This document shows, piece by piece, positions 11,401 through 51,306 of a stretch of 64,000 bases of DNA. Source of the DNA: Candidatus Cloacimonadales bacterium. Lineage in GTDB: Bacteria > Cloacimonadota > Cloacimonadia > Cloacimonadales > JAIOQZ01. Both the position numbers and the translations under genes were made by a program. The notes under the pieces were generated by a model. It saw nothing but the letters and a program-made list of their open reading frames with translations. It was not told where the DNA came from and ran no database searches. The first letter of the stretch is position 1, and the number at the start of each line of letters is the position of its first letter. The stretch spans positions 3,104,001 through 3,168,000 of the forward strand of contig OY762463.1 in the NCBI GenBank assembly GCA_963665815.1, read 5' to 3'.

Positions 11401-13576
11401 CAGGAGCGGAAGTAAATGAAATTACCTGTTGATCCGGCATTCCTGCGGAATCTGAATAAACTTTCACTAAAAATGAAATTGGCTGATCATACTGAATAGT
11501 CCCCCATGACATCAGCATTTTAATTGATTCGACATGAGCAGAATCCTGAAGAACAAAGTCTGCAGCAGCTACTGAATTGTATCCGGTGTTTCCATTCACA
11601 TAATCCTGAGCATTATGTGCTTCAGTTTCACCTTCATTAAAAATCTGGCTCCATAATGTCCCAGCCGGTTGCCAATGAAGCTGAATATTTTCAAAATCAT
11701 CTATATAATACAATCCTTCAGGTACACCGGGAACACCATTAAATACACTCAATGCAAGTGAAACATCAGTGGTATCCCCACCTGTAACTTCCATAAAATC
11801 GGAAGACATGGCAATATATCCGTCAAGAGCAGCTCTTACCTGAATAAAACCTTCAGGAATATCTTCTATATAGTAGTATCCTGTTGAATCAGTTAACTCA
11901 GTTATATCCCCCACGGATACAACAGCATCCTGCAATGGGAGCATTGTCTCTTCCGATGTAATATAACCTTGAATATAACCGGTTGTATAAGGATCAACAT
12001 TAATTTCTATTCTATAATCACCGTCTTCTCCAACTGCACCATCAACCACAATATAATATTGCCCCGGATCAATCTGAAGATTCATAATTCCTGAGTATAA
12101 CCCAAAATAGTCATCATTATATACCAGATAACTTACATTATCAATAGGCAGATCGACACTGTATATTCCAAGCTTAGTATCAAATGATGAGCCATCAAGA
12201 GAGATATCTATCAGAGTAGGAGCATTGATAAAGATGCTATATACAACATCTTTATAATCTGCTCCCGGTAAATCGTAATTATTGGACATAGAAGAAGTCG
12301 ATCCACTGTCTGCCCAGACTGTGCCCGGAGTAAAGTCTACAACAATTGGATTATAAGCAAAATCCCCTACTAAATGTGTTTTCTCAATTCCAAGATAGAA
12401 ATCACCATTAGCGTTCTCACCATCAATAACTACATAGTATGTACCGGGATCAAGAACAAGATTTCTGAAGCCGGATGAAGTTGTACTGAAATCATTATTA
12501 TGATACAAATAATTATCTGATTGAAATTGAGTAACATTATCATCATATATTGTTATATGAGGATGAAAATTGTCGGATGCTGCGATAATATTGTAATTTC
12601 TCTGTTCTGTAGGGCTCATAACGAATACTACATCTTTTGAGTCTAATCCGGGAGTATCGTAAATATTGTTGAAGTTATCTATACTTATATTAGTTGTAAA
12701 AACCGAATCCTGAATGAAAGCAATACTTAATGGATTCATAACTTCATCACCCTGATATGACACGTACTGCATCTGTAGCTCGAATATACCGGAATTATCT
12801 ACTCCACTGTCGACAACAAGATAGTATCGACCTTCTGTTAAAGGATAATTCTGTATTGCAACACCCTGATCTCCTTCTATCAAAAAGTTTGTAGAATCAG
12901 GATTATCCATACCTGCAGCATCATACAGATAATAGCCAACATCAAAACTAACTTGATTTATTGCGGCAGAAAATAGATAGTTACCTGTAAGATCAAAAGA
13001 ATATACTACATCCTTACCATCAGTACCGGTAAAATTGTAATCGTCCACAAACTGTTGTATAGATTGATTAGTAAAATACTGATGATTATTATCAAAAATA
13101 ACATTATATGGATTTGCATAGGATTCTCCCTGCAAAGGCATATAATCAATCTGTATATGAAAGTTACCCTCAGACGGTCCACTTGCATCAAGTACAATAT
13201 AATAATCATTAGCAGAACTTAATGCCAGATTTCTGAAGGCTGCCTGAAGCCCATAGAAATCATCATTGTAATACAACTGATTATTAGGTGCAGGTACAAT
13301 ATTTGCATTATAGATTGCCAATTTAGTGTCATAGTCCGACCCTTCAGTAGAGATATTTATACTAACATTGTATGGGATCGAAAGAAAATACACTAAATCC
13401 TTACCATCTGCCCCGGGAACATCATAATCGTTATTATATGTAACATTTGAACCGGAATCACTGTACACATAAGTATGAGGGAAATCAATTATAATTGGAT
13501 CAGCTATTGTATCTCCAACAGCTGAAAGAAATGCATACATCAAAATGATTACTGCAATTAACAGATACTTCTTCAT
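8402..13576 (-). CDS. Large secreted multidomain surface protein: 4 PPC-like repeats, carboxypeptidase-regulatory-like and FnIII domains, T9SS type-A CTD
   Basis: Signal peptide; four DxKD[VL]V[YF]...YY[ILV]V[VLI]D repeats; several GTLxGxVTD...PIxxAxVxI...TDxxGxY domains; YNIYRD FnIII domains; NYPNPFNP...SKMTLLK. Confidence 0.85.
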   Translation of the reverse strand: MKKYLLIAVIILMYAFLSAVGDTIADPIIIDFPHTYVYSDSGSNVTYNNDYDVPGADGKDLVYFLSIPYNVSINISTEGSDYDTKLAIYNANIVPAPNNQLYYNDDFYGLQAAFRNLALSSANDYYIVLDASGPSEGNFHIQIDYMPLQGESYANPYNVIFDNNHQYFTNQSIQQFVDDYNFTGTDGKDVVYSFDLTGNYLFSAAINQVSFDVGYYLYDAAGMDNPDSTNFLIEGDQGVAIQNYPLTEGRYYLVVDSGVDNSGIFELQMQYVSYQGDEVMNPLSIAFIQDSVFTTNISIDNFNNIYDTPGLDSKDVVFVMSPTEQRNYNIIAASDNFHPHITIYDDNVTQFQSDNYLYHNNDFSTTSSGFRNLVLDPGTYYVVIDGENANGDFYLGIEKTHLVGDFAYNPIVVDFTPGTVWADSGSTSSMSNNYDLPGADYKDVVYSIFINAPTLIDISLDGSSFDTKLGIYSVDLPIDNVSYLVYNDDYFGLYSGIMNLQIDPGQYYIVVDGAVGEDGDYRIEINVDPYTTGYIQGYITSEETMLPLQDAVVSVGDITELTDSTGYYYIEDIPEGFIQVRAALDGYIAMSSDFMEVTGGDTTDVSLALSVFNGVPGVPEGLYYIDDFENIQLHWQPAGTLWSQIFNEGETEAHNAQDYVNGNTGYNSVAAADFVLQDSAHVESIKMLMSWGTIQYDQPISFLVKVYSDSAGMPDQQVISFTSAPASAVNNTYTVDFPINTYLGSGTYWVSYQAIVDWNATGAQAFAVVTPYLYNQTPGLWRNPGGQYALGTDWLALEPPLSTNAEKDFCFELIGSYETDVPPVVTRQNSLFEQRSSFTVFNPSITRYPIVHTIDNAQGLLTGRDLLTYNIYRDGSQINTEAVTLPRYFDQGLTTGAYNYYVVAVYEEGTSQPSDILPVTVNTDRIGTLQGYVTDADTGLPISNVTVTLNGSSAVTDTTGFYTLDASHGEYQLTAVVEDYFDYTHPELVQVVARTVQNFSFTMNMIPPAGIVSGYVYNSSSNNRIIGATVTIDGVQTVSGQNGLYSLSVPPGEHIVNCSKIGYDPFVSDTTITIADDQIINYIIPLSIHIPAGTLNGTVTDIQTTLPITGAEIAIGDSVVTTDSLGQYSVHIYTNHYQVTCSAENYYSDSRFVTIVDNAVTQANFMLAPVTDQIIPPVDLIANVQRYNNVFLSWSEPRDPVLSEYRHDDGEPNIWIWPGMASGNEYYAVKFANNISVDVRSAKIFARIRLNSQEQIMASVCPDDGSGNPDLLNPIFTDTIYANSNSYSGQWISAYPQDGVNTIVDEDFYVVVQWNTGNSFTVAKDTDQPANMSYSKVQDENWSVQTDGNFIMRAVVGMPDQPDVRITDRELQGYNIYRDSIQINQALVTDTYYLDSMLQNGIYEFFVTAVYDGGESPHSEIISSEIDFNGYYPPEYFTASNYSIFGADLTWLQPSFIPDGQVLSGYRIYMDSNTNMVGEINDPDSLQLIIDELPTGTHMFWLTAKYSNVTPEVESPAAGPIFICIRPRYFVPPAGLEYEILQSAVTLFWELPDFPDECSIEPFHSGYRIYKDNQSIGEVPLGVRVFNDLDPQLGTSQYYVTALYGIYESIGSDTVDVEIVGINDNEMLPKITEFSGNYPNPFNPETTLNYSVSKENDNSHVNITVYNLKGQRVVTLIDEAQQAGYHKVVWAGKDKRNKSVSSGIYFVVMKCGNYKKTSKMTLLK

Positions 13577-13724: not shown

Positions 13725-15497
13725 TTATCTCCTTTTCAAGTATCTGTCTATACCCAGTGCAGCTCTGTGACCGTCGGCAATCGCAGAAATTGCGTCAGCA
13801 GTGTTGTTTACAGTATCACCTCCGGCAAAAACAATCTCATCATTGGTCTGCATCATATCATTTGTTCTTACTTTATTTCTTCTTGTAATAATTTTATCAG
13901 CCAGTTCTTCTGACAGAAATGAGTGATCCGCAGACTGTCCGATTGCCTTAATTACTGTAGTGTATTTATCTTCATGAGTTTTCCCTTCAATAAGCACGGG
14001 TGATGGTCTTCTTCCACCTTCTTTCTGTACCATTTCAGCTTCACCCCAGATCAGAATACATCCATCAGTATTTTCCTTTATTTCCAGTGGAATTGCCTGA
14101 GGAACCATTCTGACTTTTTCGGCTTTTGCTTCATGGATTTCCTCTTCATCTGCCGGCATGTCTTCGATACGTCTTCTGTATAATACAGAGACAGAAGCTC
14201 CATAGCGTCTGGCAACACGGGCAGCATCCATGGCTACGTTACCTCCACCAATTACAGCTACATTATCTCCGATTTCCACAGTTATACCTTTATTAGTTTT
14301 ATCAAGAAATTCCAACCCGTTTATCACATTCGAATTTTCTTCACCCGGTATTTCCAGTTCATAGGGTTGATCAAGCCCGGTGGCCATAAATACAGCATCA
14401 TAACCTGATACCAGTTTACTGAACTCCTCAAAATTACTTATTCTCGTATTATATTCAACTTCTACTCCAAGTGACAATATGTGATCTATATCTTTCTTTA
14501 ATGCTTCAGGCGGAAGTCTATAATCCGGTACTCCATATTTCAGAGCTCCACCAAGTCCATCGTTACGTTCGAATATTTTCACGGAGTATCCCATACCTCT
14601 CAAATAGAATGCCGCACTTAACCCGGCAGGTCCACCACCGATTATGGCGATTTTCTTATCATTTTCAGGAAATTCCCGATTAAGCACTTCTTTCATCTGC
14701 TCAGAAGAAAACTGATCGATTATATATCTTTTCAACCATCGGATTGAGATTGGATCACCTCTATGGTTCAAAGCACAAACTTCTTCACACAAATGAGTAC
14801 AAATTCTACCGCATGCACCAGATAACGGATTTGTTTCATAAAGAATCTTCAGACCTTTCTCAATGTCTCCGTCTCTTATACACTCGATATAATCCGGGAT
14901 ACTCATGTGAGCAGGACAAGTTGAAATACAGATACCGCAGGAAATACATCTGTCAGCCTCCCTGACAGCCTTTTCCAGTGAATACCCTTTAACCATTTCA
15001 ATAAATGATTTAACAGAGTTCTCTGCATCAAGCATTTCCATTTCTTCACGTTTCAGATTAAGCAGTTCATACTGTTCAGCTCTTTTGTATCCCTTTTCAG
15101 AATTATCCCATGGTTTTTCTTCTGCCCCGGGAATAAATCGAAAAACTTCCGGATCCGTATCAACCCAGGTATACTCATTTGACATCGTAAGCGAGCCTGT
15201 AGGGCAGATATCAACACACAATGCACACCAGCAGCATCTTCCATAATCAATTCGAGGTCTTAATCCACTATCTCCTTTTTGAGTTTCCTGACCTTCTACA
15301 GGCACAAGATCAATTGCTGCATTCTGGCAGATTTCTTCACAGGTTCCGCAACCAATGCATTTATCCATATCATTTATATGAAATCCCCTGTATCTGTCCG
15401 CTCCGGGGCGTTCATCGAGAGGTTTATTTATAACAAAAGGTTTGGAAAATGCTCTTTTCCAGACATATAGTGGTGATAAAACATCTTTTATGCTCAT
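13725..15497 (-). CDS. MbxN/NuoI-like 2x[4Fe-4S] subunit fused to a GltD/NfnB-like FAD/NAD(P)H oxidoreductase
   Basis: CIGCGTCEEIC and CCWCALCVDIC, then CISCGICISTCP, CGRICTHLCEEVC, GGGPAG (FAD), GGGNVA and YRRR (NADPH-type). Confidence 0.88.
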   Translation of the reverse strand: MSIKDVLSPLYVWKRAFSKPFVINKPLDERPGADRYRGFHINDMDKCIGCGTCEEICQNAAIDLVPVEGQETQKGDSGLRPRIDYGRCCWCALCVDICPTGSLTMSNEYTWVDTDPEVFRFIPGAEEKPWDNSEKGYKRAEQYELLNLKREEMEMLDAENSVKSFIEMVKGYSLEKAVREADRCISCGICISTCPAHMSIPDYIECIRDGDIEKGLKILYETNPLSGACGRICTHLCEEVCALNHRGDPISIRWLKRYIIDQFSSEQMKEVLNREFPENDKKIAIIGGGPAGLSAAFYLRGMGYSVKIFERNDGLGGALKYGVPDYRLPPEALKKDIDHILSLGVEVEYNTRISNFEEFSKLVSGYDAVFMATGLDQPYELEIPGEENSNVINGLEFLDKTNKGITVEIGDNVAVIGGGNVAMDAARVARRYGASVSVLYRRRIEDMPADEEEIHEAKAEKVRMVPQAIPLEIKENTDGCILIWGEAEMVQKEGGRRPSPVLIEGKTHEDKYTTVIKAIGQSADHSFLSEELADKIITRRNKVRTNDMMQTNDEIVFAGGDTVNNTADAISAIADGHRAALGIDRYLKRR

Positions 15498-15521
15498 TTT
15501 TTCTCCATCTCAGTTAAATCA

Positions 15522-16658
15522 TTACCGTTCAATTTCCGGAGGGTACGTATGCAGGGATGTCATCAATCCCGCAATATCAGATATATTGACACCTTCTGCA
15601 AGATGCTCCATAAGACATACAGCATGAGTATAACTCGGTCCTCTTACATTTACTCTTCTTGGATATTCAGATCCGTCAGTTACAACATAGAATCCGTATT
15701 CACCTCTTGTACACTCTGCCTTTACGTAGGTTTCTCCGGCCGGAATCTTCCAGTGAAGAACATTAGGCAGTTCAGTATGAAAAGCTCCTTTTTCAGGGAT
15801 ATGACGAAGTATCTGCCTGATCAATGAAACAGACTGCTGCATTTCTCTATACCTGAGTAAAGCTCTATTAAATGCATCAGATTTATTATCTGTCTGAATA
15901 TCAAATTTCAGTTCTTTATACATAACAAAAGGAGTATCTTTTCTGACATCTCGCAGCATTCCGGCAGCTCTGGCATTAGGTCCTACAATTCCGTACTCAT
16001 CTATCATATCCTGAGTTATAAGCCCCAGATCAATTGCTCTATCTTTAAATACTGCATTCTGGAACATTACCTTGTGAATATCATCAAGCAATATTTCAAT
16101 CTTATCCATTGTATCAAGAACTCTTTGAGCAAAACCTTCCGGCATATCTCCTCGAACACCTCCCGGCAGCATATACATATGATAAACGCGACCGCCTGTC
16201 AATTCTTCAAAAAGATCCAGCATATAGTCTCTGTGAGCAACCGCCCACTGACCTACTGTTCCCTGACCGAATGCACCAGCCTGTCCTCCGATCCACATAA
16301 GAAAACTCGTAAGACGGGACATTTCAAGATTCAGTGTTCTCAGCCATAAAGCCTTTTCCGGTACTTTTATTCCTGCCAGATCTTCTATGGCAGCTGCAAA
16401 GCAATATTCGTTAAAATCTGGTTCAGGTACAGCAATTCGGCAAACCAGAGGAAAACACTGAATAAACTTACGTCTTTCCATAAGTTTTTCAAAACCTCTG
16501 TGCAGATAACCAACATGTGTTTTGCATTCGATAACTTCATCACCGCAAATAGTGAGTTCAAGAGACATGTTTCCGGTTATACCCGGATGGTTAGGTCCCT
16601 GCCATATTTTCAGATATTTATGAGAACTTAAATCCGTATATTTTTCTTTTTCAGACAT
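15522..16658 (-). CDS. mbxL: MbxL/NuoD-like large subunit without a NiFe site
   Basis: GPNHPG, GYLHRGFEK, RIAVPEPD, RGPSY, C-terminal SLHTYPPEIER. Confidence 0.88.
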   Translation of the reverse strand: MSEKEKYTDLSSHKYLKIWQGPNHPGITGNMSLELTICGDEVIECKTHVGYLHRGFEKLMERRKFIQCFPLVCRIAVPEPDFNEYCFAAAIEDLAGIKVPEKALWLRTLNLEMSRLTSFLMWIGGQAGAFGQGTVGQWAVAHRDYMLDLFEELTGGRVYHMYMLPGGVRGDMPEGFAQRVLDTMDKIEILLDDIHKVMFQNAVFKDRAIDLGLITQDMIDEYGIVGPNARAAGMLRDVRKDTPFVMYKELKFDIQTDNKSDAFNRALLRYREMQQSVSLIRQILRHIPEKGAFHTELPNVLHWKIPAGETYVKAECTRGEYGFYVVTDGSEYPRRVNVRGPSYTHAVCLMEHLAEGVNISDIAGLMTSLHTYPPEIER

Positions 16659-16660
16659 TT

Positions 16661-17131
16661 TTACTCCATGAGAGCTTTTGTAATAATTGATTTTTCATCT
16701 GCTGCAACTTTTCTGGTTACTTTGGAGATATCTCCACCAAATAATTGTCCCATCAGCTTAATATTCATGGAAGCTATATTGACTTTACCTTCTCTGTCTT
16801 GAAATACGGCAAGTCTGCAAGGCATTATTGCAGTAATGAACATATTTTTGTCTTTAGAAAGAATTTCATTTACGTTATCCGGTTTACATATTGAAAATGT
16901 TACAACTCTTACGTTAGTATTGTAACCAAAATTCCTCATACATTCATCAATCTCATAGATTCTCTGAATTTCCCATTCATGATCCAGAATCGAATTTTCG
17001 ATTTTTGAAACAGTCTGATCGAATGACAGTTTCGAAGGCACAACCTTAATCATGGCAGGAGGTCCGAACTTAAGCACAATTACAAGTGTAAGTATTATTC
17101 CAACAGCAAAGCCAATAAAAAATTTCTTCAT
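16661..17131 (-). CDS. DUF302 family protein with N-terminal membrane anchor
   Basis: SKLSFDQTV, SICKP and IMPCRLAVF motifs. Confidence 0.8.
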   Translation of the reverse strand: MKKFFIGFAVGIILTLVIVLKFGPPAMIKVVPSKLSFDQTVSKIENSILDHEWEIQRIYEIDECMRNFGYNTNVRVVTFSICKPDNVNEILSKDKNMFITAIMPCRLAVFQDREGKVNIASMNIKLMGQLFGGDISKVTRKVAADEKSIITKALME

Positions 17132-17671
17132 TTATTTATCCTCATTAAGTAAATCGTTTTTGTATAACTGATCTTTCATATATTCAGCCGGATCGTTTGT
17201 AGTTCTTCCCGGTCTTGGGAAATAAGTCTCTTCAGAGTATTTTTTTGTATCAAAATCTCTTCTGTATGGCGGTATACCGTCCCATCCTTCAAGAATAAAG
17301 GGATCGTCGAGTCCAGGGCTGCCAGGAAACTCAATACCAAACATCTCTTTCAACTCGCGCTGATATGTTTTTGCCTGTTTCCATAACTCATGTATGGACA
17401 CCATTTCAGGTTTATTGCGATCAATAAAAACTCTGATAGCAATATCATGGGCAGTCTTGTAGTTATGAACAATATATGTGAGTTGAAATTTCTCATGCTC
17501 CAGATGATCAACTGCAGTTATCAGTACAAGATGAGTATAATCAAGTTGAAACTTCAGTTCATAGAACAGCGACAGAAGGCTTTCTTCTTTTATTGTAATA
17601 AAGCTTACATACTCTTTATCAACTCTGTCTGAGCCACTATATTTTTTAAGTAATCCATCTAAAAAGTCCAT
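17132..17671 (-). CDS. mbxK: MbxK/NuoC-like subunit
   Basis: ITAVD, SIHELW..A..YQRELKEMFGIEFPG, PPYRRDF. Confidence 0.88.
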   Translation of the reverse strand: MDFLDGLLKKYSGSDRVDKEYVSFITIKEESLLSLFYELKFQLDYTHLVLITAVDHLEHEKFQLTYIVHNYKTAHDIAIRVFIDRNKPEMVSIHELWKQAKTYQRELKEMFGIEFPGSPGLDDPFILEGWDGIPPYRRDFDTKKYSEETYFPRPGRTTNDPAEYMKDQLYKNDLLNEDK

Positions 17672-17687
17672 TAAATCTCCTGCTATC

Positions 17688-18275
17688 CTACCAGCTATAG
17701 TCCGGCATGTCCCAATGTTTTATAATTTTCTTCTGATTCTCTTTATACCAGTCGAAGTTTTCAGCATAATGGTTTGCACCTTCAGCCTTTCCTTCTCGAA
17801 TCAGTTGTTTAAGCTTCTGAAATCCGGCAATAATTGATTCCGGTCTGGGCATACAGCCTGCGATGTAGACATCAACTGGAATATAATGATCAAGCCTGTT
17901 TATAGTATTATAGCTATCCCAATACATACCGCCGTTAATTGTACAGCTTCCCAGCCCTATTACAAATTTTGGATTCTGCATCTGCTCGTATGAACGGATA
18001 ATTCTTTTGAGGGTTTTTACAGAAGCATATCCTCCAATGATAAAGACAGAAGCTTGTCTTGGAGTTGGTCTTGCCGCAATACCATATCTGTACATGTCAT
18101 ATCTTGCTGTCATCAATGGTCGCAGTTCCACAGCACCGCACCCCGTACCAAAACCAAGAATCCATAATGAATTAGCTCTCGCCCAGTTCAGGAAGTTCTC
18201 AACATATTTGTTCAATGCTTTAACCGGTTTCGGTCTCTCCTGACAGAAAAGTTCGTTGTTCATATTATCATTCAT
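17688..18275 (-). CDS. mbxJ: MbxJ/NuoB-like Fe-S small subunit
   Basis: WARANSLW, GTGCGAVE, TPRQA, GSCTINGG, PVDVYIAGCMPRPE. Confidence 0.9.
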   Translation of the reverse strand: MNDNMNNELFCQERPKPVKALNKYVENFLNWARANSLWILGFGTGCGAVELRPLMTARYDMYRYGIAARPTPRQASVFIIGGYASVKTLKRIIRSYEQMQNPKFVIGLGSCTINGGMYWDSYNTINRLDHYIPVDVYIAGCMPRPESIIAGFQKLKQLIREGKAEGANHYAENFDWYKENQKKIIKHWDMPDYSW

Positions 18276-18300
18276 ATATCACCTGACAATTTTCTATTTG

Positions 18301-19251
18301 TTATTTAAAGTATAGAGCAAATATTATACTGATTATTCCCAGTATCAGTGGGTACTTCAGGAAAAAACGTATAGACTGCTCAGTTCTGAAACGAGGGAAA
18401 GCAACTCCAATAAAAACGCTGAACATATAGATAAAGAATGTTTTTATAACCATTATTGCAATTGCAACTAAATGTTCAACAAAAGTTCCGGCAGCAACAG
18501 CAGTTCCTCCAAAGAATAAATTCATGAACAGTACAAGCTTAGCTGCATTGAAAACTGATCTGTTTGTTTGCAGCACACCTAAGAATCCACTGTGAAACTC
18601 AGTTGGAGGTCCGATTGCTATTTCCTGAGGAGCAAGAACAATATCAAAAGGAGAGTGCATATTCATTCCCAGCATTGCGATCATTGCAGTAATAACAGCT
18701 AAAGGATTTGTGAAAAGTGTCCAGTTAAGTATACTTCCCTGCTGAGCTGCTACAATGTCCACAATCGATAATGTATTATACTGTATCATCAGCGAAATTA
18801 TTGAAAGAGTAAACGGTAGTTCAAAGGCTGTCATTTGAGAAAGCCCCCGGGCAACACCAACAGCGCTGTAAGGGTGTCCGCTCTCTCCTGCCCCAAGTGC
18901 CATACCAAGCTGTCCAAAGAACATAAAGTACAGTACAAGCAGGATATCTCCAGCAAAATGAAAGTTTGCAAACATGATTGAATTGTGAATTATAGGTATG
19001 AACATAAGAGTTCCAATCCCACCGGCAAGTCTGAAAACCGGTCCCAGATAGAACATTACTCCGTGAGTAATCATTGTTCTTTTACCATAGGTTTTGATTA
19101 TATCCATATAAGGCTGCCATAATGGAGGACCAAATCTTCCGTGTACTCTGGCGACTATTTTTCTGACTGTCCCGTTGAGAATCAGTCCATAGTTAACTAT
19201 AACAAATAAGCTTATAAAAGCATTACCCACAGATTTCAGTATATCAGACAT
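18301..19251 (-). CDS. mbxM: MbxM/NuoH-like membrane subunit
   Basis: RKIVARVHGRFGPPLWQPYMDIIK, PFDI..APQE, FPRFR. Confidence 0.9.
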   Translation of the reverse strand: MSDILKSVGNAFISLFVIVNYGLILNGTVRKIVARVHGRFGPPLWQPYMDIIKTYGKRTMITHGVMFYLGPVFRLAGGIGTLMFIPIIHNSIMFANFHFAGDILLVLYFMFFGQLGMALGAGESGHPYSAVGVARGLSQMTAFELPFTLSIISLMIQYNTLSIVDIVAAQQGSILNWTLFTNPLAVITAMIAMLGMNMHSPFDIVLAPQEIAIGPPTEFHSGFLGVLQTNRSVFNAAKLVLFMNLFFGGTAVAAGTFVEHLVAIAIMVIKTFFIYMFSVFIGVAFPRFRTEQSIRFFLKYPLILGIISIIFALYFK

Positions 19252-22200
19252 TTATTACTCCTGATAAGAAAAAGATTGCTATGATGTATAATACAACCTG
19301 TAATGCATAGACTTGAGCATTACCGGAGAAAATGTATTTCAGACCCGATGCTATCGCATGATTAAGATCATAGATAAACTCCCAGAATTTTTCCACAGAT
19401 GAGTTAAGCAGAGGTGAGAAAGCTTTTTTGTAGAATGGGAAGAAATTATAGGCATAATGTGTAGTTTCAGGTTTATATGGCCGCTCTGCCGCAAAGACAA
19501 TATTGAACTGACCAACTTTCTGAATTTTTCTCGTTGCAGCCAGCAGAATAAGAAATGCAAAGCCAAATACTCCCATTGTAACATTCATTACAAGGCTTCC
19601 ATTCCAGCTTGTAATTGAGCTTTTCAATAAATTACCATCCCAGACAAGACTGTGTCCGAAGATATCAGATACTGCACTCTGCACAGGTTTTACGATAGTA
19701 GAAGGGAACATTGAGAACAGCATGATAACACCTATCAGAATAAACTGAGGAATGATATACCATACAGGAGCTTCCTTGACTGCTTTATGTTCTGTTTTTG
19801 CCTGTCCGAGGAATATCGTATGAATGAGCCTGAACAGATAAAGAAACGCTATAGTGCTTATGAAGAATGCAGCTCCAGCCTGTAGATACCAGCCTTTCTC
19901 AAGCAGTCCGGTGTAAAGAAGCCATTTGCTGCCGAAACCTGCAAGTGGTGGTACTCCGGATATTGCAATTATCCCAATCAATACTGAGATGAATGTCAGA
20001 GGCATTTTCTTGATCAGCCCACCTGTCTTGTACATTGACATTGTATCCGTACGGAGATGTACTCCTGAAACTGCAAGGAATACAAGACCTTTAAAAACAA
20101 GGTGAAGGACTGTCAGATAGAGTGCCGAAATCCAACCAATATCGCTGAACATGGATATTGACAGGATAATGTATCCAATCTGTCCCATACTTGAATATGC
20201 CAGCAATTTCTTATAGTTTTCCTGGAACACTGCCAGAAAAGTTCCTGTAAACGCAGTCAAAATACCGATAATACTCAGTATCTGCATAATCAGTTCATTG
20301 CTCATCAAAAGAGGAGCCATAAGAATACTGAACAGGAAAAAACCATAAATACCTATCTTACTGAGCACAGATGAGAAAAATGTGGATATAATATCATCTG
20401 ATCGTGTATAAGCATCCGGAAGCCAGATATGAACACCACAGGCACCGGATTTAATAAGGAATGCCATTGATAGCAAGATGTAAACAATTATACCTGCTTG
20501 AGGAATTCCTACAAAGCTGATCATATATGTATTGTCGATGTATTTCCCTGCATAACTGAATCCCAGTAATAAAAGCACTGCAGATCCAAGGGAGAACATA
20601 ATATATTTGAGACCGGCAGCTTCTGTTTTTCTGTTATACAGAACAAGGAAGTAGGAGGATATTGTAATAAACTCCCATTGAACGAAAAACTGCAATGTTC
20701 TCTGAGCAACGATAAGAATAATTAAAGAGGATATCATCATTGCAAGGAATGGATAAAAACCCTGTTCTTTACCTTTTCTGTTCATTGAAGCAAAGACAAA
20801 GAGTAAAGATGCTGCCAGAAATATCCCTCCAAATATAAGTCTCAGATTACCGATATCACTTCCATAAAGCCTATACAACATCCAGGAATATCCTGAAATG
20901 GAAGCAATAAGCACTATTGACTTAGCTTTTGCTGTCAACCAGTCCAGAGTAAAGAAAATCATCAGGAAAAAAACAGGTGCATAAGTTATGTAATTCATTT
21001 GTTTTATAGGATTCAGTACAACACCGACAAGGAATAGAAGGAACAAAACAGCTATAACAGGAATAACCTGCATAAATCCATGATCAGTATTCCTGTTTAC
21101 AGGTTCAGCTGAATCTGTTTTTCTTACAAGAACTTTTCCCATCCACTTCAGCATGTAATATGATTCCAGAAGGACTCCCAGACCAATAGCAAAACTATAG
21201 AATGGATTCATGTTCTTCATCATTATGTTAAACAGTTGCCATTTACTCCAGAATCCCGGGAAAGGTGGTAATCCGATTAAAGCCAGAATAAAGATTACGA
21301 AAAAGATAAGAAGATCAGGGTGTTTCCTGAGATTCGTCCATTCATTAACTCGCTTTTCTTTTATAATACCGCTTATCCAGAATAAACCTGATTTTGCGAG
21401 GAAATGGTTGATGAATAAACCACCTGCGATTTTCAAAATCATATGATTATCCACATTTATGCTGAATAAGAAGACAATTGCAGCAATAATAAGATTTACC
21501 TGAGCAATTGAAGAATAGCCCAGCAGTCTGTTTGCAGCTTTCTGTCTCAAAGCAATTAGATTCATAAATACAAAAGATGCAACGGACAGAATAAACAGCA
21601 GATTTGCTGTATGTAGTGTTTTAAATATCAACAGACCTGTCAGTGGTAGAACTTTATAAAAGGCATAAACGCTTGCAGCTGTAATTACTGACGAGAACAT
21701 CGCTCCTGTACCTGAGTCCGCAGATTCGTAAACAGATAGTCCCCAGCCATTGGCAGGAAAAGGTTTCAGTTCAACAAATAGTGCTCCCAGAATGAAAACG
21801 ATTGCTCCTGCAAGTACTTTTTCAGCCTTGAACAATGTAAATTCTCTGGATACAGAAAGAAAATCCAGATGCAGTGAACCGCTTAAGTAATAAAGCATGA
21901 TTATTCCCAGGAGTAATACAATAGATGTTATTCCCGATGCAACCATATACTGAAATCCCGCAGAATACGATCTTTTGTCTCGACCTGAATATATAATTGC
22001 TGCTGATGAAAGAGACATAATCTCAATGAATACAAACAGATTAAATATATCTCTGGTCAGAATAATTCCGTTTATTCCTATAAACAGTGTAATTATGAGC
22101 ATGATAAAGTATTTGCTGCCCCTGACCATTTTCTGAGAATTATACATGATAGTAAGTATACCTGTAAAATTCACGAGAGTTAATAAAATTGATTCGATTA

Positions 22201-22435
22201 TTCCCATGTGAAGACTTATTGAGAAAGGAGGTTTTGAGCCTGCAGTAAACATTGAAACACTGATTTGTGTTCCGGACTGAGTCATATTCCAGAGCCAGAT
22301 GCCCGGAATTACTGCCGCTGCTGTCATAATAAGTCCGGAAACAATCACGGAGAACTTTCTGCTAACTTTATCAAACAGTGGTATAAGGAATACACCTGCC
22401 AGCATAACTATCAAGATATATATTGGGTTTACCAT
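19244..22435 (-). CDS. Fused MbxH+MbxH' (double MrpD/MrpA-like proton-translocating subunit)
   Basis: 1063 aa containing two complete antiporter modules: DIFNLFVFIEI...LGYSSIAQ...GLPPFPGFWSK and FFVQWEF...HIWLPDAY...LAYSSMGQ...GVPPLAGFGSK. Confidence 0.9.
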   Translation of the reverse strand: MVNPIYILIVMLAGVFLIPLFDKVSRKFSVIVSGLIMTAAAVIPGIWLWNMTQSGTQISVSMFTAGSKPPFSISLHMGIIESILLTLVNFTGILTIMYNSQKMVRGSKYFIMLIITLFIGINGIILTRDIFNLFVFIEIMSLSSAAIIYSGRDKRSYSAGFQYMVASGITSIVLLLGIIMLYYLSGSLHLDFLSVSREFTLFKAEKVLAGAIVFILGALFVELKPFPANGWGLSVYESADSGTGAMFSSVITAASVYAFYKVLPLTGLLIFKTLHTANLLFILSVASFVFMNLIALRQKAANRLLGYSSIAQVNLIIAAIVFLFSINVDNHMILKIAGGLFINHFLAKSGLFWISGIIKEKRVNEWTNLRKHPDLLIFFVIFILALIGLPPFPGFWSKWQLFNIMMKNMNPFYSFAIGLGVLLESYYMLKWMGKVLVRKTDSAEPVNRNTDHGFMQVIPVIAVLFLLFLVGVVLNPIKQMNYITYAPVFFLMIFFTLDWLTAKAKSIVLIASISGYSWMLYRLYGSDIGNLRLIFGGIFLAASLLFVFASMNRKGKEQGFYPFLAMMISSLIILIVAQRTLQFFVQWEFITISSYFLVLYNRKTEAAGLKYIMFSLGSAVLLLLGFSYAGKYIDNTYMISFVGIPQAGIIVYILLSMAFLIKSGACGVHIWLPDAYTRSDDIISTFFSSVLSKIGIYGFFLFSILMAPLLMSNELIMQILSIIGILTAFTGTFLAVFQENYKKLLAYSSMGQIGYIILSISMFSDIGWISALYLTVLHLVFKGLVFLAVSGVHLRTDTMSMYKTGGLIKKMPLTFISVLIGIIAISGVPPLAGFGSKWLLYTGLLEKGWYLQAGAAFFISTIAFLYLFRLIHTIFLGQAKTEHKAVKEAPVWYIIPQFILIGVIMLFSMFPSTIVKPVQSAVSDIFGHSLVWDGNLLKSSITSWNGSLVMNVTMGVFGFAFLILLAATRKIQKVGQFNIVFAAERPYKPETTHYAYNFFPFYKKAFSPLLNSSVEKFWEFIYDLNHAIASGLKYIFSGNAQVYALQVVLYIIAIFFLSGVINV

Positions 22436-22776
22436 TTGAGCTCCTTATAATCATCAACTGACAATGATTTTCCGGATTTCACCATATTTATTGCATAAGC
22501 CAGCATAACTGCCGTTACAGCCAGCCCGATCACAATTGCTGTCAGTACAAGAGCCGAAGGAACAGGATCTACTACATTCACGCTGCCCGGTGTAATTTTA
22601 TCTGTAAAAATCGGTGCTGTAGCATTTTTCATATATCCAAGAGACACAATTATCAAGTGTACTCCTGTATCTATTATTGAAAAACCAATAATAATTTTTA
22701 TTATATTTTTTCGTGTCAGCATTGCCCACAAACCTATTATAATTAAAGCGATACCTATAAACAGTGTTATTTTCAT
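22429..22776 (-). CDS. mrpC: MrpC/MbxG subunit
   Basis: NIIKIIIG, VDPVPSALVLTAIVIG. Confidence 0.9.
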   Translation of the reverse strand: MKITLFIGIALIIIGLWAMLTRKNIIKIIIGFSIIDTGVHLIIVSLGYMKNATAPIFTDKITPGSVNVVDPVPSALVLTAIVIGLAVTAVMLAYAINMVKSGKSLSVDDYKELKW

Positions 22777-22777
22777 A

Positions 22778-23473
22778 CTACTTCTCCATATTCTTCAGGA
22801 TTCCGCTTATTTCCGCACCTACTTTTATGCCGATTACAGAATATATTAATGGAATTGCTCCTGCACTGAATAACTTGAGATATTCACCTATACCGATAAA
22901 TCTCGGATCAAGAAAACCATTTCCAATAATAAAAGCTTTGTTTGAAACTAACAGTAAACCTGATAAACCCAGAAGAATATATATTACTCCTGAAGACGAT
23001 TCCAGCCAGTGCAGAATAGACTCATTAGTATTTGATGCTACATCAGAAAGTATCATCAAAACAAAACCGGAAGCAATAATAACTCCCCCCTGAAATCCTC
23101 CACCGGGAGAAAGATGACCATGAGAAAAGACGTAAATTCCAAGAACAACTATTGCTCCTAACAGCACGGATGTACCTGATTTCAGTATTTCAGAAGATTG
23201 TTTTCTCTTGAATTTTTTCCTTCTGCCAAGAAGAAAGCCGACTGCAGCAGTAGCAATAAAAAGAACCGTTACCTCTCCAAGTGTATCCAGTCCTCTGTAT
23301 GTTACAACAACAGCAGTAACTACATTGGGAGAATTCAGATCTTTTGGTGCTCCTTCCACATATTCCTTAGATACAAGCCCAAGCTCATCGTGTGGTTCAA
23401 TGAATAATGTCAAATACACCAGAATAGTAATTACAAGGAAAATTGCCAGAATAGTAAGAACTCTGTTAATCAT
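22778..23473 (-). CDS. mrpB: MrpB/MbxE-F subunit
   Basis: NVVTAVVVTYRGLDTLGE, HGHLSPGGGFQGG. Confidence 0.9.
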   Translation of the reverse strand: MINRVLTILAIFLVITILVYLTLFIEPHDELGLVSKEYVEGAPKDLNSPNVVTAVVVTYRGLDTLGEVTVLFIATAAVGFLLGRRKKFKRKQSSEILKSGTSVLLGAIVVLGIYVFSHGHLSPGGGFQGGVIIASGFVLMILSDVASNTNESILHWLESSSGVIYILLGLSGLLLVSNKAFIIGNGFLDPRFIGIGEYLKLFSAGAIPLIYSVIGIKVGAEISGILKNMEK

Positions 23474-23777
23474 TTATTTCCTCCCTGTCCAGCATATCAT
23501 TTGATTCTGAAAGATGAGAGTCATCCGCATTTTCCTTTTCCAGAATATCTCTGATTCTTCTTACAGCAAACAGGAAAACAATGGAAGTCAGTACAGATCC
23601 GATTGCTGCCTCTGTCATTGCCACATCAGGAGATGCCAGAATAAGATACAGAATACTGGCAATTAGACTTATAATTCCGGAAGCTATGATAGCAGAAATC
23701 AACTGACCTGAATAAACAGCATAAATTGCTGATATTATCATAATGAATCCTGCAGTAACTATTATTATTGTAGTCAT
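23466..23777 (-). CDS. DUF4040/MbxD subunit
   Basis: SPDVAMTEAAIG motif. Confidence 0.88.
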   Translation of the reverse strand: MTTIIIVTAGFIMIISAIYAVYSGQLISAIIASGIISLIASILYLILASPDVAMTEAAIGSVLTSIVFLFAVRRIRDILEKENADDSHLSESNDMLDREEIND

Positions 23778-24118
23778 TTACTCTCCTCACAATCTGATTT
23801 ATCAGTCTGAAGATCATCCCTGACTGTTTTTTCTGACATAAAAGTTTTAACACAATGTGCAGCCCTTGCCAATGCATGAGATGAAATCGGATTAGTAAAA
23901 AGAATGAAGACCATAAGAAGTATAATTTTCCCACAGCCAACTGTCTCAAAAAAACCTATGCTTATACCTGCGAGAAAAAGGATAGACCCTAATGTTGAGG
24001 TTTTTGTACCTGCCTGCATTCTATTATAAAGATCAGGCATTCTTATTAGCCCAAGAGACCCAAGCAGAAAGAAAATCGATCCTGCCAATGCAAATAAAGC
24101 CCCAATAATCTGAGCCAT
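23774..24118 (-). CDS. mrpG: MrpG/MbxC subunit
   Basis: GLIRMPDLYNRMQAGTK, TNPISSHALARAA. Confidence 0.9.
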   Translation of the reverse strand: MAQIIGALFALAGSIFFLLGSLGLIRMPDLYNRMQAGTKTSTLGSILFLAGISIGFFETVGCGKIILLMVFILFTNPISSHALARAAHCVKTFMSEKTVRDDLQTDKSDCEESK

Positions 24119-24378
24119 CAGAAACCTCCTTCAAGGTATCTTGCTACAGCAACAACCCCAAGGAAACTTATAAAACCGTAGACCAGTGCAACATCAATGT
24201 ACATTCTACGTCCTGACGTTGCTGCAAGAAAAACAATCAATCCGATTCCTATTATTGTCATTACATCAAGTGCTACAATTCTATCAGCAGGCGATGGACC
24301 TTTCAGGAATCTGAAAAAGCTAAGCAGAAATGCAACAAGTGCTATTATTGCACTGATATTGTATATTAGTTCAGCCAA
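24118..24378 (-). CDS. mrpF: MrpF/MbxB subunit
   Basis: RFLKGPSPADRIVALD, IDVALVY. Confidence 0.9.
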   Translation of the reverse strand: MAELIYNISAIIALVAFLLSFFRFLKGPSPADRIVALDVMTIIGIGLIVFLAATSGRRMYIDVALVYGFISFLGVVAVARYLEGGF

Positions 24379-24868
24379 AAATCACCTCCAGATACTTTTC
24401 GAAACTACCGACAATAGCTCTGGTTGTACTTTCAATATCTTTAGTTCCTACATCAATCCAGTGTATATAGAAAAAATCCTCATCTGTTTCAACGGTAAGT
24501 GTGCCGGGAGTAAGAGTTATAGAATTAGCAAGAAATAATCTTCCAATTCTTGATTTAAGTTTTGTACGAACTTTTACAATTCCGGGATTAATCGGAATTT
24601 TGGGATGAAGCACCCTGAAAGCAACATCAATGTTTGATTTGATAAGCTCTACAATGAATACAAAGATATAAATTATCAAATAAAGTAATGATTTGGGATT
24701 TAATCTGATTTCTGCAAAAATACTGTCACACCTTAAAAGGAAAATAGATACAAGAATACTTACTATTGCCCCCATTATCAGTTCCTGATTATCTTTCACA
24801 CCGGTAAGTGCAATCCAGACAATAAACAGAAACAGAGTAGAAACAATGAAATGCTTTAATTTTCTCAT
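24371..24868 (-). CDS. mrpE: MrpE/MbxA subunit
   Basis: SNIDVA, PGIVK, LANSITLTPGTLT. Confidence 0.92.
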   Translation of the reverse strand: MRKLKHFIVSTLFLFIVWIALTGVKDNQELIMGAIVSILVSIFLLRCDSIFAEIRLNPKSLLYLIIYIFVFIVELIKSNIDVAFRVLHPKIPINPGIVKVRTKLKSRIGRLFLANSITLTPGTLTVETDEDFFYIHWIDVGTKDIESTTRAIVGSFEKYLEVIFG

Positions 24869-50197: not shown

Positions 50198-50220
50198 TAA
50201 AAAGCAATGTTTTGCTTTAC

Positions 50221-50245
50221 AGGGGAAACATCAAATGTTTCCCTT
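50221..50245. other. Intergenic hairpin without a U tract
   Basis: aggggaaacat-caa-atgtttccctt. Confidence 0.5.
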
Positions 50246-50270
50246 GATTATTATCTGATTTGGAGATGAC

Positions 50271-51290: not shown

Positions 51291-51306
51291 ATAATAAGAG
51301 GTTTGT

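Follow-up and report, generated by a model that had tools for sequence, protein, structure and literature searches.

The closest described relative of the complex reported here is MBS, the membrane-bound sulfane reductase of Pyrococcus furiosus, formerly called Mbx (PDB-id 6U8Y), which has 13 subunits in the order A-E, G, H, H', M, J, K, L, N and is fed by free ferredoxin. PMC7684303 places its catalysis at the proximal cluster, which is bound only by MbsJ C28, C93 and C123, and describes mutants in which the vestigial MbsL cysteines proved not to be catalytic. According to the same source, complex I, MBH and MBS all couple redox chemistry to pumping at the J/L/M chamber and a conserved loop. 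In bacteria, mbx-like operons of Thermotoga and proteobacteria carry a gltD-like flavoprotein in place of NuoI (Degli Esposti 2015, PMC4758237). Our literature search found no biochemical characterisation of any bacterial member or of an identical architecture. Here, we describe such an operon from a member of the Cloacimonadota, a host that agrees with the syntrophic or fermentative context assumed in a previous sequence-only reading.

The operon occupies positions 13725-24868 of a 64,000-nucleotide stretch of DNA, hereafter the window. It comprises 13 intact ORFs, all on the minus strand and transcribed from 24868 to 13725, and neighbouring ORFs overlap or stand a few bases apart. Domains were assigned by Pfam and are listed in transcription order (Table 1). 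Judged by sequence, the set of 13 genes is complete and codes for a predicted membrane ion pump that resembles complex I and belongs to the archaeal MBS type. Gene order and content are those of the sequence-only reading, with one correction: the gene that it called B has the MnhB domain, but it also bears an MbhE domain that had been omitted. Subunit A heads the operon in related loci as well.

Table 1 Genes of the operon at 13725-24868 of the window, in transcription order.
Gene product	Position	Strand	Domain evidence
Subunit A (MrpE/MnhE-like), first gene	24371..24868	-	PF01899 MNHE 1.3e-42
Subunit B (MrpF-like)	24118..24378	-	PF04066 MrpF_PhaF 6.3e-18
Subunit C (MrpG-like)	23774..24118	-	PF03334 PhaG_MnhG 2e-26
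Subunit D (MbhD, formerly DUF4040)	23466..23777	-	PF13244 MbhD 7.4e-19
Subunit E (MbhE and MnhB domains)	22778..23473	-	PF04039 6e-18; PF20501 2.2e-08
Subunit G (MrpC/NuoK-like)	22429..22776	-	PF00420 Oxidored_q2 3.4e-23
Fused H+H' antiporter-like subunit, 1063 aa	19244..22435	-	2x Proton_antipo_M in one ORF
Subunit M (NuoH-like, membrane anchor of peripheral arm)	18301..19251	-	PF00146 NADHdh 2e-52
Subunit J (NuoB-like), 3-Cys proximal [4Fe-4S] site	17688..18275	-	Oxidored_q6
Subunit K (NuoC-like)	17132..17671	-	PF00329 Complex1_30kDa 6.4e-26
Membrane-anchored DUF302 protein, between K and L	16661..17131	-	PF03625, 25.4 bits (cut-off 23)
Subunit L (NuoD-like)	15522..16658	-	Complex1_49kDa
Subunit N (NuoI-like) fused to NfnB-type module, 590 aa, last gene	13725..15497	-	Fer4 x2, Fer4_20, Pyr_redox_2

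Subunits L, J, M, K, HH' and the N domain were compared with solved structures. In each of the six comparisons Pyrococcus MBS scored highest, well ahead of the other structures except in the case of K. Subunit L scored 309.9 bits with 6u8y_L, against 216.2 with Nqo4 and 121.4 with MbhL; the corresponding scores of J were 224.5 (6u8y_J), 134.6 (NdhK) and 86.6 (MbhJ), and those of M were 182.6 (6u8y_M) and 71.1 (MbhM). The N domain, residues 6-178, matched 6u8y_N with 89 bits, the runner-up reaching 49, while for K the difference was marginal (48.3 bits with 6u8y_K and 45.9 with ND9). These scores and the gene order bear out the kinship to MBS that had been proposed. The H+H' fusion, also proposed, is genuine: one ORF has separate stretches that match MbsH (residues 8-299 with 6u8y_H, 141.6 bits) and MbsH' (residues 534-1053 with 6u8y_X, 196.2 bits). 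H and H' form one polypeptide in the Cloacimonadota and Spirochaetota loci and two in the complete gammaproteobacterial locus L029; they are apparently split in L028 too, a truncated gammaproteobacterial locus. Besides this fusion, the window's complex differs from MBS in having an extra DUF302 gene, in being bacterial and of mesophile type (37 % GC), and in subunit N, which carries an NfnB-type module for NADPH, FAD and two [4Fe-4S] clusters.

The proximal cluster site of MBS is retained. Residues C45, C110 and C140 of window J correspond to MbsJ C28, C93 and C123 in a gap-free alignment with the same loop length, and the three cysteines are present in all 25 J subunits of the family. The position of MbsJ C25, which is not a ligand, is Gly42 in the window and Gly in 23 of the 25. 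The coupling loop between TMH5 and TMH6 of M is also kept, with D203, E210 and E218 in place of MbsM D196, E203 and E211. Two of the five charged-axis residues of MbsM are not kept in window M (E104 is replaced by F111 and E193 by S200), and the vestigial MbsL C85 and C385 correspond to Ala76 and Tyr372.

Complex I (Nuo) and MBH (6CFW) share with the window's complex a common ancestry of L, J, K, N and M and of the antiporter modules. NCBIfam labels subunits of the window's complex as NuoB, NuoD and NuoH, the genome has one UbiA-family gene beside a polyprenyl synthase gene, and complexes of Cloacimonadota MAGs have been annotated as Mrp-linked 'Group 4g' hydrogenases (Williams et al. 2021, PMC8542988). 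A quinone-reducing variant of complex I or a group-4 [NiFe] hydrogenase is nevertheless extremely improbable, being contradicted by the motifs of L, the genome searches and the tree of L. Neither end of window L has a CxxC NiFe motif, NiFeSe_Hases has no match in the genome, and the scores with MBH fall far below those with MBS. The quinone residues H38 and Y87 of Nqo4 are replaced by T28 and V77; L of MBS, too, is devoid of the quinone His/Tyr pair and of a NiFe site. Window J has a single Cys where complex I carries a tandem pair, and the operon is devoid of NuoEFG, of whose input module the NADPH module would be a functional analogue. By profile search, L is the sole PF00346 match in the genome, in which no second complex-I-type gene was found; nor were MenD, MqnA or NqrA of a quinone pathway found in this single-contig genome, which is 98.66 % complete. 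A tree built from 135 NuoD-like proteins places window L within a clade of 13 members with MBS motifs (support 99), separate from the NiFe-motif clade, Fpo and the Nuo/Ndh-like bulk. The view that the complex is neither a hydrogenase nor a true complex I thus holds, and the phylogeny suggested along with it, run here for L, agrees.

Subunit N was read previously as a fusion with a flavoprotein that has two further Fe-S motifs, FAD and an NADPH-type motif, and every one of these motifs is present. The full set of 16 cysteines that four [4Fe-4S] clusters require is in place, as are the GxGxxG of FAD and a second Rossmann motif followed by YRRR..DMPAD, a stretch that 26 of 28 fused homologues share. 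Residues 153-589 align over their whole length with Thermotoga maritima NfnB (4YLF_B, 264 bits), P. furiosus NfnI-L (5JCA_L) and large subunits of the Stn/NfnABC type (8OH5_C, 9BOV_A), at 250-296 bits. The highest score is with 9n5u_A (296 bits), and GltD (185 bits) is more distant than these NfnB-type proteins, which have in common with N both cluster motifs as well as the FAD fold and the YRR..MPA stretch, the last seen in T. maritima NfnB. Over its full length (residues 1-589) N matches NCBIfam NF010590 with 690 bits, below the model cut-off of 946, and is therefore not the same equivalog.

Since the nearest relatives of the flavoprotein module are bifurcating NfnB/NfnI-L and Stn/NfnABC-type proteins, its FAD could be thought to split the electron pair of NADPH, one electron passing to the acceptor at the J site and one to ferredoxin. 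We consider such flavin-based bifurcation highly unlikely, and do not expect it of the module of window N. Unlike NfnB systems, the operon encodes no NfnA-like second branch ([2Fe-2S]/FAD), and the module is covalently attached to a dicluster domain of NuoI type that belongs to a membrane complex. Many enzymes that do not bifurcate use GltD/NfnB-like modules simply as NAD(P)H wires. With a polysulfide-level acceptor, moreover, the sum would be endergonic by the generally known potentials.

The reading that we prefer, tentatively and at somewhat less than even chances, is that the operon encodes a bacterial complex of the Mbx/MBS type in which NADPH-driven reduction of sulfane sulfur is coupled to ion pumping. 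Reduction of polysulfide by NADPH and reverse flow to NADP+ were the candidate roles put forward in the sequence-only reading. The Mrp-derived subunits A-G, H+H' and M would form the ion-translocating membrane arm, and J, K, L and N the peripheral arm, with the NADPH dehydrogenase module of N at the place that archaeal MBS offers to free ferredoxin. NADPH would pass a hydride to FAD, from which single electrons would travel along four [4Fe-4S] clusters, two in the NfnB-like and two in the NuoI-like part, to the proximal cluster of J. This cluster has three Cys ligands only, as in MBS, and its free iron would reduce a substrate other than a quinone or protons within the L/J/M chamber; sulfane sulfur, as polysulfide or persulfide, is the most probable one. 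The reaction at the J site would then drive the conserved loop of M as well as the antiporter modules, so that Na+ or H+ is exported. NADPH may come from the genome's Stn/NfnABC-like complex; a cluster of NuoE-like, NuoF-like and 1103-aa NfnB-like genes lies in the genome. In Spirochaetota the source may be NfnAB, as NfnA and NfnB lie directly downstream of N in nine of their loci. If NADPH were so supplied, the pump could draw on electrons of NADH as well as of ferredoxin.

Given standard potentials of -320 mV for NADPH and about -260 mV for polysulfide, this transfer would yield about -11 kJ per 2 e-. The estimate is similar to the 12 kJ/mol/2e- of MBH, and Fd-driven MBS has 42 kJ/mol/2e- (PMC8165549); the small driving force of NADPH beside that of ferredoxin counts against NADPH-driven sulfur reduction. 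So do the replaced MbsL cysteines and the MbsM residues that are not kept, and a genome search for a YeeE/YedE sulfur transporter found none. Hints of a link to sulfur come from the 4.36-fold induction of T. maritima mbxA upon S0 addition (PMC9431562), from a BigR/SqrR/YgaV-like ArsR regulator downstream of the operon in seven Spirochaetota loci, and from the recruitment of DUF302, genes of which sulfur oxidisers carry in their sox clusters (PMC5037610, PMC11034169). The window operon and the six other Cloacimonadota operons examined have no BigR-like regulator and no Nfn next to them, which also weighs against this reading, and our literature search found no documented sulfur reduction by the Cloacimonadota lineage.

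Older literature sees bacterial Mbx as an ion-translocating ferredoxin:NADP+ oxidoreductase, the reading of PMC4758237 and of the Mesotoga preprint 10.1101/322537, citing Schut 2013. Reduced ferredoxin would dock either on N or at the NfnB-like clusters, and FAD would reduce NADP+ while ions are pumped, as in an NADP-specific Rnf. This view counts against the preferred one. In its favour, transfer from ferredoxin to NADP+ is exergonic, NfnAB adjacency in the nine Spirochaetota loci is in keeping with an NADPH pool used in common, whichever way electrons flow, and NfnB proteins alone can carry out NADPH-linked Fd:NADP+ transfer (PMC12221290), so a ferredoxin site may persist. We nonetheless regard it as unlikely. 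The cluster chain would have both of its substrate sites at the distal end, and the path of electrons between them would leave out the J/L/M chamber with the conserved loop, so that no coupling mechanism is evident. The strict three-Cys, open-iron proximal cluster of all 25 members would be left unexplained. For Pyrococcus, this model was dropped after MBS activity was found (PMC7684303). The genome, which also encodes FeFe hydrogenases, already has two Rnf-type clusters. Rnf is a functional analogue only, an ion-translocating link of low-potential carriers to pyridine nucleotides in fermenters; its proteins and cofactors are unrelated, and it uses NAD+, not an NfnB-type NADPH site.

Complex-I-type machines are reversible, and the narrow gap between the NADPH and polysulfide potentials would make direction sensitive to conditions. 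The ion gradient could thus lift electrons from a sulfide/polysulfide-level or mid-potential donor to NADP+, or the complex could act as a redox valve fed by ferredoxin and NADPH. Gammaproteobacteria include members (L028, L029), and a sulfur-oxidising symbiont of Riftia expresses an 'Mrp-Mbx' together with the rTCA cycle, the authors leaving its direction unsettled (PMC11636981). For the window's complex this is a distinctly unlikely mode, as its host is a fermenter-type member of the Cloacimonadota (FeFe hydrogenases, Rnf) with a surplus of reductant and no need of uphill NADPH synthesis. The two gammaproteobacterial members, moreover, deviate exactly in the nucleotide motif, being devoid of the YRR NADPH-type motif that Cloacimonadota and Spirochaetota members carry, and therefore may not guide the reading of the window's complex.

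The fused design has been published before and is common among anaerobic bacteria. Among the 201 Cloacimonadota genomes sampled it turned up in 75, and many Spirochaetota carry it too. The rarity implied when the complex was called rewired does not stand: this is the ordinary bacterial form, and an NCBIfam model exists for it (NF010590/PRK13984, 'putative oxidoreductase'). The Thermotoga fusion named in the sequence-only reading is indeed published, and its gene closes an operon linked to Mrp, as in the window; the gammaproteobacterial members end with rubrerythrin, in agreement with the same source (PMC4758237). The description in that source, by which the Thermotoga member was compared, mentions no DUF302 insertion.

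The DUF302 gene is the new element. It lies within the operon in nine Cloacimonadota genomes, inserted at two distinct sites that differ between Cloacimonadota families. The AF2 model of its product (pLDDT 83) has a helix at residues 2-27 followed by the DUF302 fold, and its best structural match is 1q9u (TM 0.72/0.86). Residues C82 and C105 are invariant in all 14 homologues.

The operon consists of 13 intact open reading frames on the minus strand, in which neighbouring genes overlap or lie a few bases apart, within a window of 37 % GC. By Pfam assignment, the first six genes in transcription order encode MnhE, MrpF, MnhG, MbhD (the former DUF4040), MbhE with MnhB, and a NuoK-like protein. 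The seventh encodes a 1063-aa protein with two Proton_antipo_M domains, which represents subunits H and H' fused. Genes 8 to 10 are NuoH-like, NuoB-like and NuoC-like, respectively, and are followed by a DUF302 protein (gene 11), a NuoD-like protein (gene 12) and, as gene 13, a 590-aa subunit N carrying two Fer4 domains, Fer4_20 and Pyr_redox_2. These reading frames and assignments bear out the gene content and order that had been proposed from the sequence alone. On both sides, the operon is flanked by genes that are unrelated by Pfam. A scan for promoters and terminators gave 54 promoter-like sites, compared with 42 expected. The nearest public locus is found in a 'Candidatus Cloacimonadales' MAG, whose N protein is 92 % identical.

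Location of the features discussed. Positions refer to the window unless a related locus (L) or a sampled Cloacimonadota genome (G) is named; G000 is the host genome.
Feature	Location	Strand	Remarks
MBS/Mbx-type operon	24868-13725	-	13 genes
DUF302 gene	16661-17131	-	PF03625, 25.4 bits against a cut-off of 23; between K and L
DUF302 genes in related operons	L062, L064, L066:3964-4443, L067-L070
DUF302 homologue outside the operon	L056:1483-3419		downstream of thioredoxin, DsbD_TM (CcdA-like) and thioredoxin_3 genes, same strand
Downstream flank	8402-13576		1724-aa protein with type-IX-secretion sorting tail
Upstream flank	27115-29463 (receptor)		divergent; 2-hydroxyacid dehydrogenase, BtpA, TonB-dependent receptor
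Four very large or repeat-rich proteins	8402-13576, 30847-37113, 57578-62593, 12-1823
CapC-type poly-gamma-glutamate synthesis gene	48617-49069		amid several reading frames without Pfam match (47440-51618)
NuoE-like, NuoF-like and 1103-aa genes	L065:1305-6862 (G000:C1:2127804-2133361)		elsewhere in the host genome
IS200-like transposase	L065:7190-7678		just downstream of the preceding cluster
NfnA and NfnB after fused N	L009, L010, L020, L021, L022, L024, L025, L030, L031	same as N	Spirochaetota
ArsR-family regulator	L006, L010, L014, L017, L018, L019, L022		Spirochaetota
Rubrerythrin gene	L028:7901-8404, L029:11818-12336		last gene of both gammaproteobacterial operons
Fused N with in-frame TGA	G168:C68:9976-11565		match ends at residue 529, near the contig end

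For each of six subunits searched against all solved structures, the best match was the sulfane reductase MBS of Pyrococcus furiosus (6U8Y; formerly Mbx). Subunit L matched it with 309.9 bits, the next being Thermus Nqo4 with 216.2, while MbhL of the membrane-bound hydrogenase MBH reached 121.4. The corresponding values were 224.5 bits for subunit J (next NdhK, 134.6; MbhJ, 86.6) and 182.6 for subunit M (MbhM, 71.1); for subunit K the lead was marginal, with 48.3 bits against 45.9 for ND9. Residues 6-178 of N matched with 89 bits, compared with 49 for the next, a NuoI, and the N- and C-terminal halves of the antiporter protein correspond to MbsH (141.6 bits) and MbsH' (196.2 bits), respectively. 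The MBS gene set and order, MbsA-E, G, H, H', M, J, K, L and N, is also found in the window, although the latter has the extra DUF302 gene and the H+H' fusion. Moreover, MbsN is a stand-alone protein that receives electrons from free ferredoxin, whereas N of the window is fused to a 430-residue NfnB-type NADPH flavoprotein. Because of this fusion, the complex is not MBS in the strict, characterised sense. Reverse or dual-donor operation of the complex seems quite unlikely to us.

Subunit L was also searched against 1.84 billion representative proteins, with 8268 matches at E <= 0.001, of which 553 reached E <= 1e-30. From the 150 matches listed, 24 representatives that covered fewer than 330 query positions were left out, and the other 126 were combined with the window and eight loci in a 135-row FastTree tree, whose supports are SH-like only. 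The 'quinone-type' motif rule matched 0 of these rows, and such rows are labelled 'other'. In this tree, which holds no named Thermococcales sequence, subunit L of the window lies inside a 13-row clade (support 99) that has the motif R-I-(C/A)-V-P in all members and CxxC pairs in none. The most distant members of this clade, P0128 and P0129, have 6u8y_L as their best solved match, with 363 and 347 bits, whereas complex I reaches 259 at most. A separate 14-row clade (support 99) contains all 13 rows that have CxxC motifs of the NiFe type, and the window clade is also apart from the Methanosarcina FpoD cluster and from the large Nuo/Ndh-like remainder.

According to the report on the MBS structure (PMC7684303), catalysis takes place on the proximal [4Fe-4S] cluster of MbsJ, which is ligated by C28, C93 and C123 only, C25 being too distant, as a result of a cluster-binding loop three residues shorter than in MBH. 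The same report describes C85 and C385 of MbsL as vestigial NiFe cysteines, non-catalytic according to mutants, and states that MbsL lacks both H38 and Y87 of Nqo4 and E21 of MbhL. Window J aligns without gaps to MbsJ through the cluster region, where C45, C110 and C140 correspond to C28, C93 and C123, and Gly42 to C25. A three-cysteine proximal [4Fe-4S] site with a shortened loop, as in MBS, is predicted for this subunit. The three cysteines are invariant in all 25 J subunits of the family, and 23 of them have Gly at the C25 position, the two gammaproteobacterial loci alone having Cys there. In subunit L (27 sequences), the position of Nqo4 H38 is Thr in 25, including Thr28 of the window, and Glu in two, and that of Y87 is always Val (Val77 in the window). 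The MbsL C85 position is occupied by Cys in 20 and by Ala in seven, among them the window (Ala76), and the C385 position by Tyr in 21, including Tyr372 of the window, and by Cys in six. The TMH5-6 loop of subunit M is kept, D203, E210 and E218 being equivalent to D196, E203 and E211 of MbsM; Phe111 and Ser200 stand in place of MbsM E104 and E193. Judged by these residues, the parts responsible for chemistry and coupling in MBS are conserved, and the signatures of hydrogenases and quinone reductases are absent.

Two familiar identities were considered and rejected. Complex I has Nqo4 His38 and Tyr87 and the tandem Cys of NuoB, none of which is kept in the window, where a single Cys in the motif GTGCGA replaces the tandem in J. 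Nothing points to a quinone pool in the organism (host genome, a single contig of 3.96 Mb, 98.66 % complete), because NqrA, MqnA and MenD had no match there in family-model searches, which by themselves do not prove absence. One UbiA-family gene is present and adjoins a polyprenyl synthase. Group 4 [NiFe] hydrogenases (MBH, Ech, Hyc) have CxxC pairs in the large subunit, whereas subunit L of the window has neither the N- nor the C-terminal NiFe-binding CxxC motif, lies outside the NiFe-motif clade and does not match NiFeSe_Hases (PF00374), for which the whole host genome gave no match either. In view of these signatures, reduction of quinone or protons by the complex is hardly credible. The gene for subunit L is the only NuoD-type gene of the host genome, which also has two Rnf-type clusters and four FeFe-hydrogenase matches. 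The sequence-only reading, an energy-conserving MBS relative that is neither a hydrogenase nor a true complex I, proved sound overall in its MBS kinship and in the lack of NiFe and quinone signatures. Subunit L branches inside neither Nuo nor the group-4 hydrogenases in the FastTree tree, and literature searches found no biochemical characterisation of an identical architecture or of any bacterial member.

At the input end, residues 153-589 of N align end to end with NfnB-type proteins, namely 9n5u_A (296 bits), T. maritima NfnB (4ylf_B, 264 bits), the large subunit of P. furiosus NfnI (256 bits) and the Stn/NfnABC-type chains 8oh5_C and 9bov_A (250-261 bits). The small subunit of glutamate synthase scored lower against the flavoprotein part (185 bits). 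Pfam E-values were 2.4e-28 for Fer4_20 and 1.2e-34 for Pyr_redox_2. The NuoI-like part contains the motifs CxxCxxCxxxC and CxxCxxCxxxCP, and the NfnB-like part contains two further four-cysteine motifs, the FAD motif GGGPAG, and GGGNVAMD followed by YRRR..DMPAD, which corresponds to YRR..EMPA of NfnB. All elements of NfnB/GltD-type flavoproteins, the two [4Fe-4S] motifs, the FAD fold and the NADPH Rossmann fold with YRR, are present in N. We take YRR to be a mark of NADPH specificity, on the basis here of identity with NfnB only. The cysteine motifs are complete in all 28 fused homologues except that of L009, a locus that starts at a contig end and leaves the first motif uncovered; YRRR is found in 26 of the 28, and the two gammaproteobacterial members have another sequence. 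N matches the NCBIfam model NF010590 (PRK13984, 'putative oxidoreductase') over its full length, residues 1-589 of 590, with 690.3 bits, below the curated equivalog cut-off of 946. N has the NF010590 architecture, but by this score belongs to a more distant branch of it. In bacterial Mbx of this type, as in the window, a NuoI dicluster and a GltD/NfnB flavoprotein form one polypeptide, encoded last in an Mrp-linked operon. In the bifurcating transhydrogenase NfnAB, NfnA is encoded alongside NfnB, whereas no NfnA partner ([2Fe-2S], FAD, NAD) is encoded in the window operon; bifurcation by the complex, which does have the NfnB-type component, is very unlikely.

The only other Fer4_20 protein of the host genome is the 1103-aa gene product encoded with NuoE-like and NuoF-like proteins, which combines Fer2_4, NfnB-like, Nqo3-type Fe-S and molybdopterin-like domains. 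This cluster resembles the electron-bifurcating transhydrogenases of the Stn/NfnABC type, which are structural matches of window N, and is a possible source of NADPH for the complex. In nine Spirochaetota loci, NfnA and NfnB directly follow fused N, so that an NADPH-forming partner is available in both lineages. Seven Spirochaetota loci have a gene for an ArsR-family regulator after the operon or after NfnAB. Among solved structures, this regulator is closest to the persulfide/sulfide-responsive BigR (3pqj, E 8.6e-10), followed by HlyU and YgaV, and it matches more weakly the ArsR-family entries 6o8k-6o8o, which we take to be SqrR. A cysteine in 'HILCAL' is invariant in the four regulators aligned and presumably lies in the helix that holds the redox cysteine of BigR. 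Neither NfnAB nor the ArsR-family regulator nor rubrerythrin adjoins the Cloacimonadota operons.

Subunit N has thousands of relatives, the best 120 of which are all 588-612 aa long and 57-92 % identical, with names that include Cloacimonetes, Spirochaetota and Marispirochaeta. The same gene order, with fused N as the last gene, was found in 25 related loci that have both K and L, as far as each contig reaches. Six of these are from Cloacimonadota, 15 from Spirochaetota, two from Gammaproteobacteria, and one each from an uncultured bacterium and 'Sabulitectum'; H and H' are separate genes in the complete gammaproteobacterial locus L029. At E <= 1e-100, fused N occurs in 75 of the 201 sampled Cloacimonadota genomes, in 56 of the 151 that are of high quality, and in 37 of 61 genera. 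The in-frame TGA of the copy in one genome may reflect faulty assembly, or the gene may be broken. The window operon typifies a widespread architecture already in print and is a new member of it in Cloacimonadota.

The undescribed element is the recruitment of DUF302 into the operon at two positions. The protein has 156 aa, and its AF2 model (pLDDT 83) comprises an N-terminal helix, residues 2-27, followed by a domain that superposes on 1q9u with TM 0.72/0.86. The model matches 1q9u, 7tj1 and 1j3m with E-values of 5e-10 to 8e-07, and the Atlas neighbours of the protein are all DUF302. Homologues with 22-96 % identity are found in 38 of the 201 Cloacimonadota genomes. Among the 25 loci with K and L, only the closest relative, L002, has DUF302 in the operon. 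From coordinates and fetched loci, the gene lies between K and L in genomes G000, G001, G143, G165, G162, G192 and G168; in G178 it adjoins L where the contig ends. The position between K and L is found in two Cloacimonadota families, and in G021, of a third family, the gene lies between E and G. That the gene entered the operon at two different places speaks for a functional link between DUF302 and the complex. The transmembrane helix, C82 and C105 (in 'MPCR') are kept in all 14 homologues aligned. DUF302 genes are also described inside sox clusters of sulfur oxidisers in two reports (PMC5037610, PMC11034169). Outside the operon, the gene was found in eight other fetched loci, in varied contexts that are not conserved; thioredoxin, DsbD_TM and thioredoxin_3 lie upstream in one of five loci. 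Complex prediction of L, K and J with the soluble part of DUF302 gave a score of 0.00, below the mark, a value that argues against binding no more than for it, and probed the wrong face if the domain is periplasmic.

The anatomy is most simply read as a linear wire, in which electrons would pass from NADPH through FAD and four [4Fe-4S] clusters to the three-cysteine cluster of J and then to a substrate in the L/J/M chamber, whose chemistry would drive the conserved M loop and the Mrp-type modules. That this wire performs NADPH-driven sulfane-sulfur reduction coupled to pumping is plausible, if a little short of probable. Sulfane sulfur is suggested as the substrate by the strict conservation of the open-iron proximal cluster and by the kinship to MBS, with S0 induction in Thermotoga, the BigR-like regulators and DUF302 as circumstantial hints. 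Reduction of polysulfide or dimethyl trisulfide with Na+ export is the known activity of MBS and is only predicted for the window complex. At standard potentials, each electron pair passed from NADPH to polysulfide would release only about 11 kJ. The figure quoted for MBH is similar, 12 kJ/mol/2e- (PMC8165549), which makes pumping conceivable but tight. In T. maritima, mbxA rose 4.36-fold after S0, and the complex is described as a putative Fd-dependent sulfur reductase in that report of 2022 (PMC9431562). An older model describes a ferredoxin:NADP+ oxidoreductase: Degli Esposti 2015 (PMC4758237) read the flavoprotein fusion of Mbx as the site of NAD(P)+ reduction, and a Mesotoga preprint (10.1101/322537), citing Schut 2013, names Mbx an NADP:ferredoxin oxidoreductase. 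This model lacks a coupling mechanism, since both substrate sites would be distal to the chamber, and we consider it unlikely. Sulfane-sulfur reduction can be extended to a broader, rather doubtful proposal. An ion-pumping NADPH:sulfane-sulfur (persulfide/polysulfide) oxidoreductase, acting with an Nfn/Stn enzyme that forms NADPH, would enable fermenting Cloacimonadota and Spirochaetota to use zero-valent sulfur, be it intracellular or environmental, for respiration on electrons of both NADH and ferredoxin. The DUF302 protein of Cloacimonadota, with its membrane anchor and two cysteines, would be an accessory subunit that had gone unrecognised, or a partner that handles sulfur, and would have been recruited into the operon at least twice. 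A search of the host genome for sulfur-transport genes gave one TusA-domain gene and no YeeE/YedE transporter.

Among the complex-I relatives of fermentative anaerobes to which no reaction has yet been assigned, the Mbx family with fused N is probably the most common; it is carried by those 75 Cloacimonadota genomes, by many Spirochaetota, by Thermotogae and by some Proteobacteria. Metabolic reconstructions divide between hydrogenase, Fd:NADP+ oxidoreductase and sulfur reductase, and the choice of label alters the predicted ATP yield and the hydrogen and sulfide output of digesters and sediments. Williams 2021 reported a 'Group 4g NiFe hydrogenase linked to Mrp' in Cloacimonadota MAGs (PMC8542988); should those genes encode the present complex, the label of hydrogenase would be an error, because subunit L has no NiFe ligands. 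The strictly kept MBS-type three-cysteine cluster, the lack of any site for NiFe or quinone and an NADPH-type input linked to Nfn/Stn narrow the options, and the recruitment of DUF302 adds a new clue. The old question of what bacterial Mbx does is now well posed, and the proposed reaction is a hypothesis directly testable in cultivable carriers.

Elsewhere in the window, three of the four very large or repeat-rich proteins carry a type-IX-secretion C-terminal sorting domain over the E-value threshold, and among these large proteins are a C25 (gingipain-family) peptidase of 1671 aa and a CarboxypepD_reg-repeat protein of 2088 aa. The window also has a CapC-type gene, and poly-gamma-glutamate synthesis has been reported in Cloacimonadota (PMC8542988).
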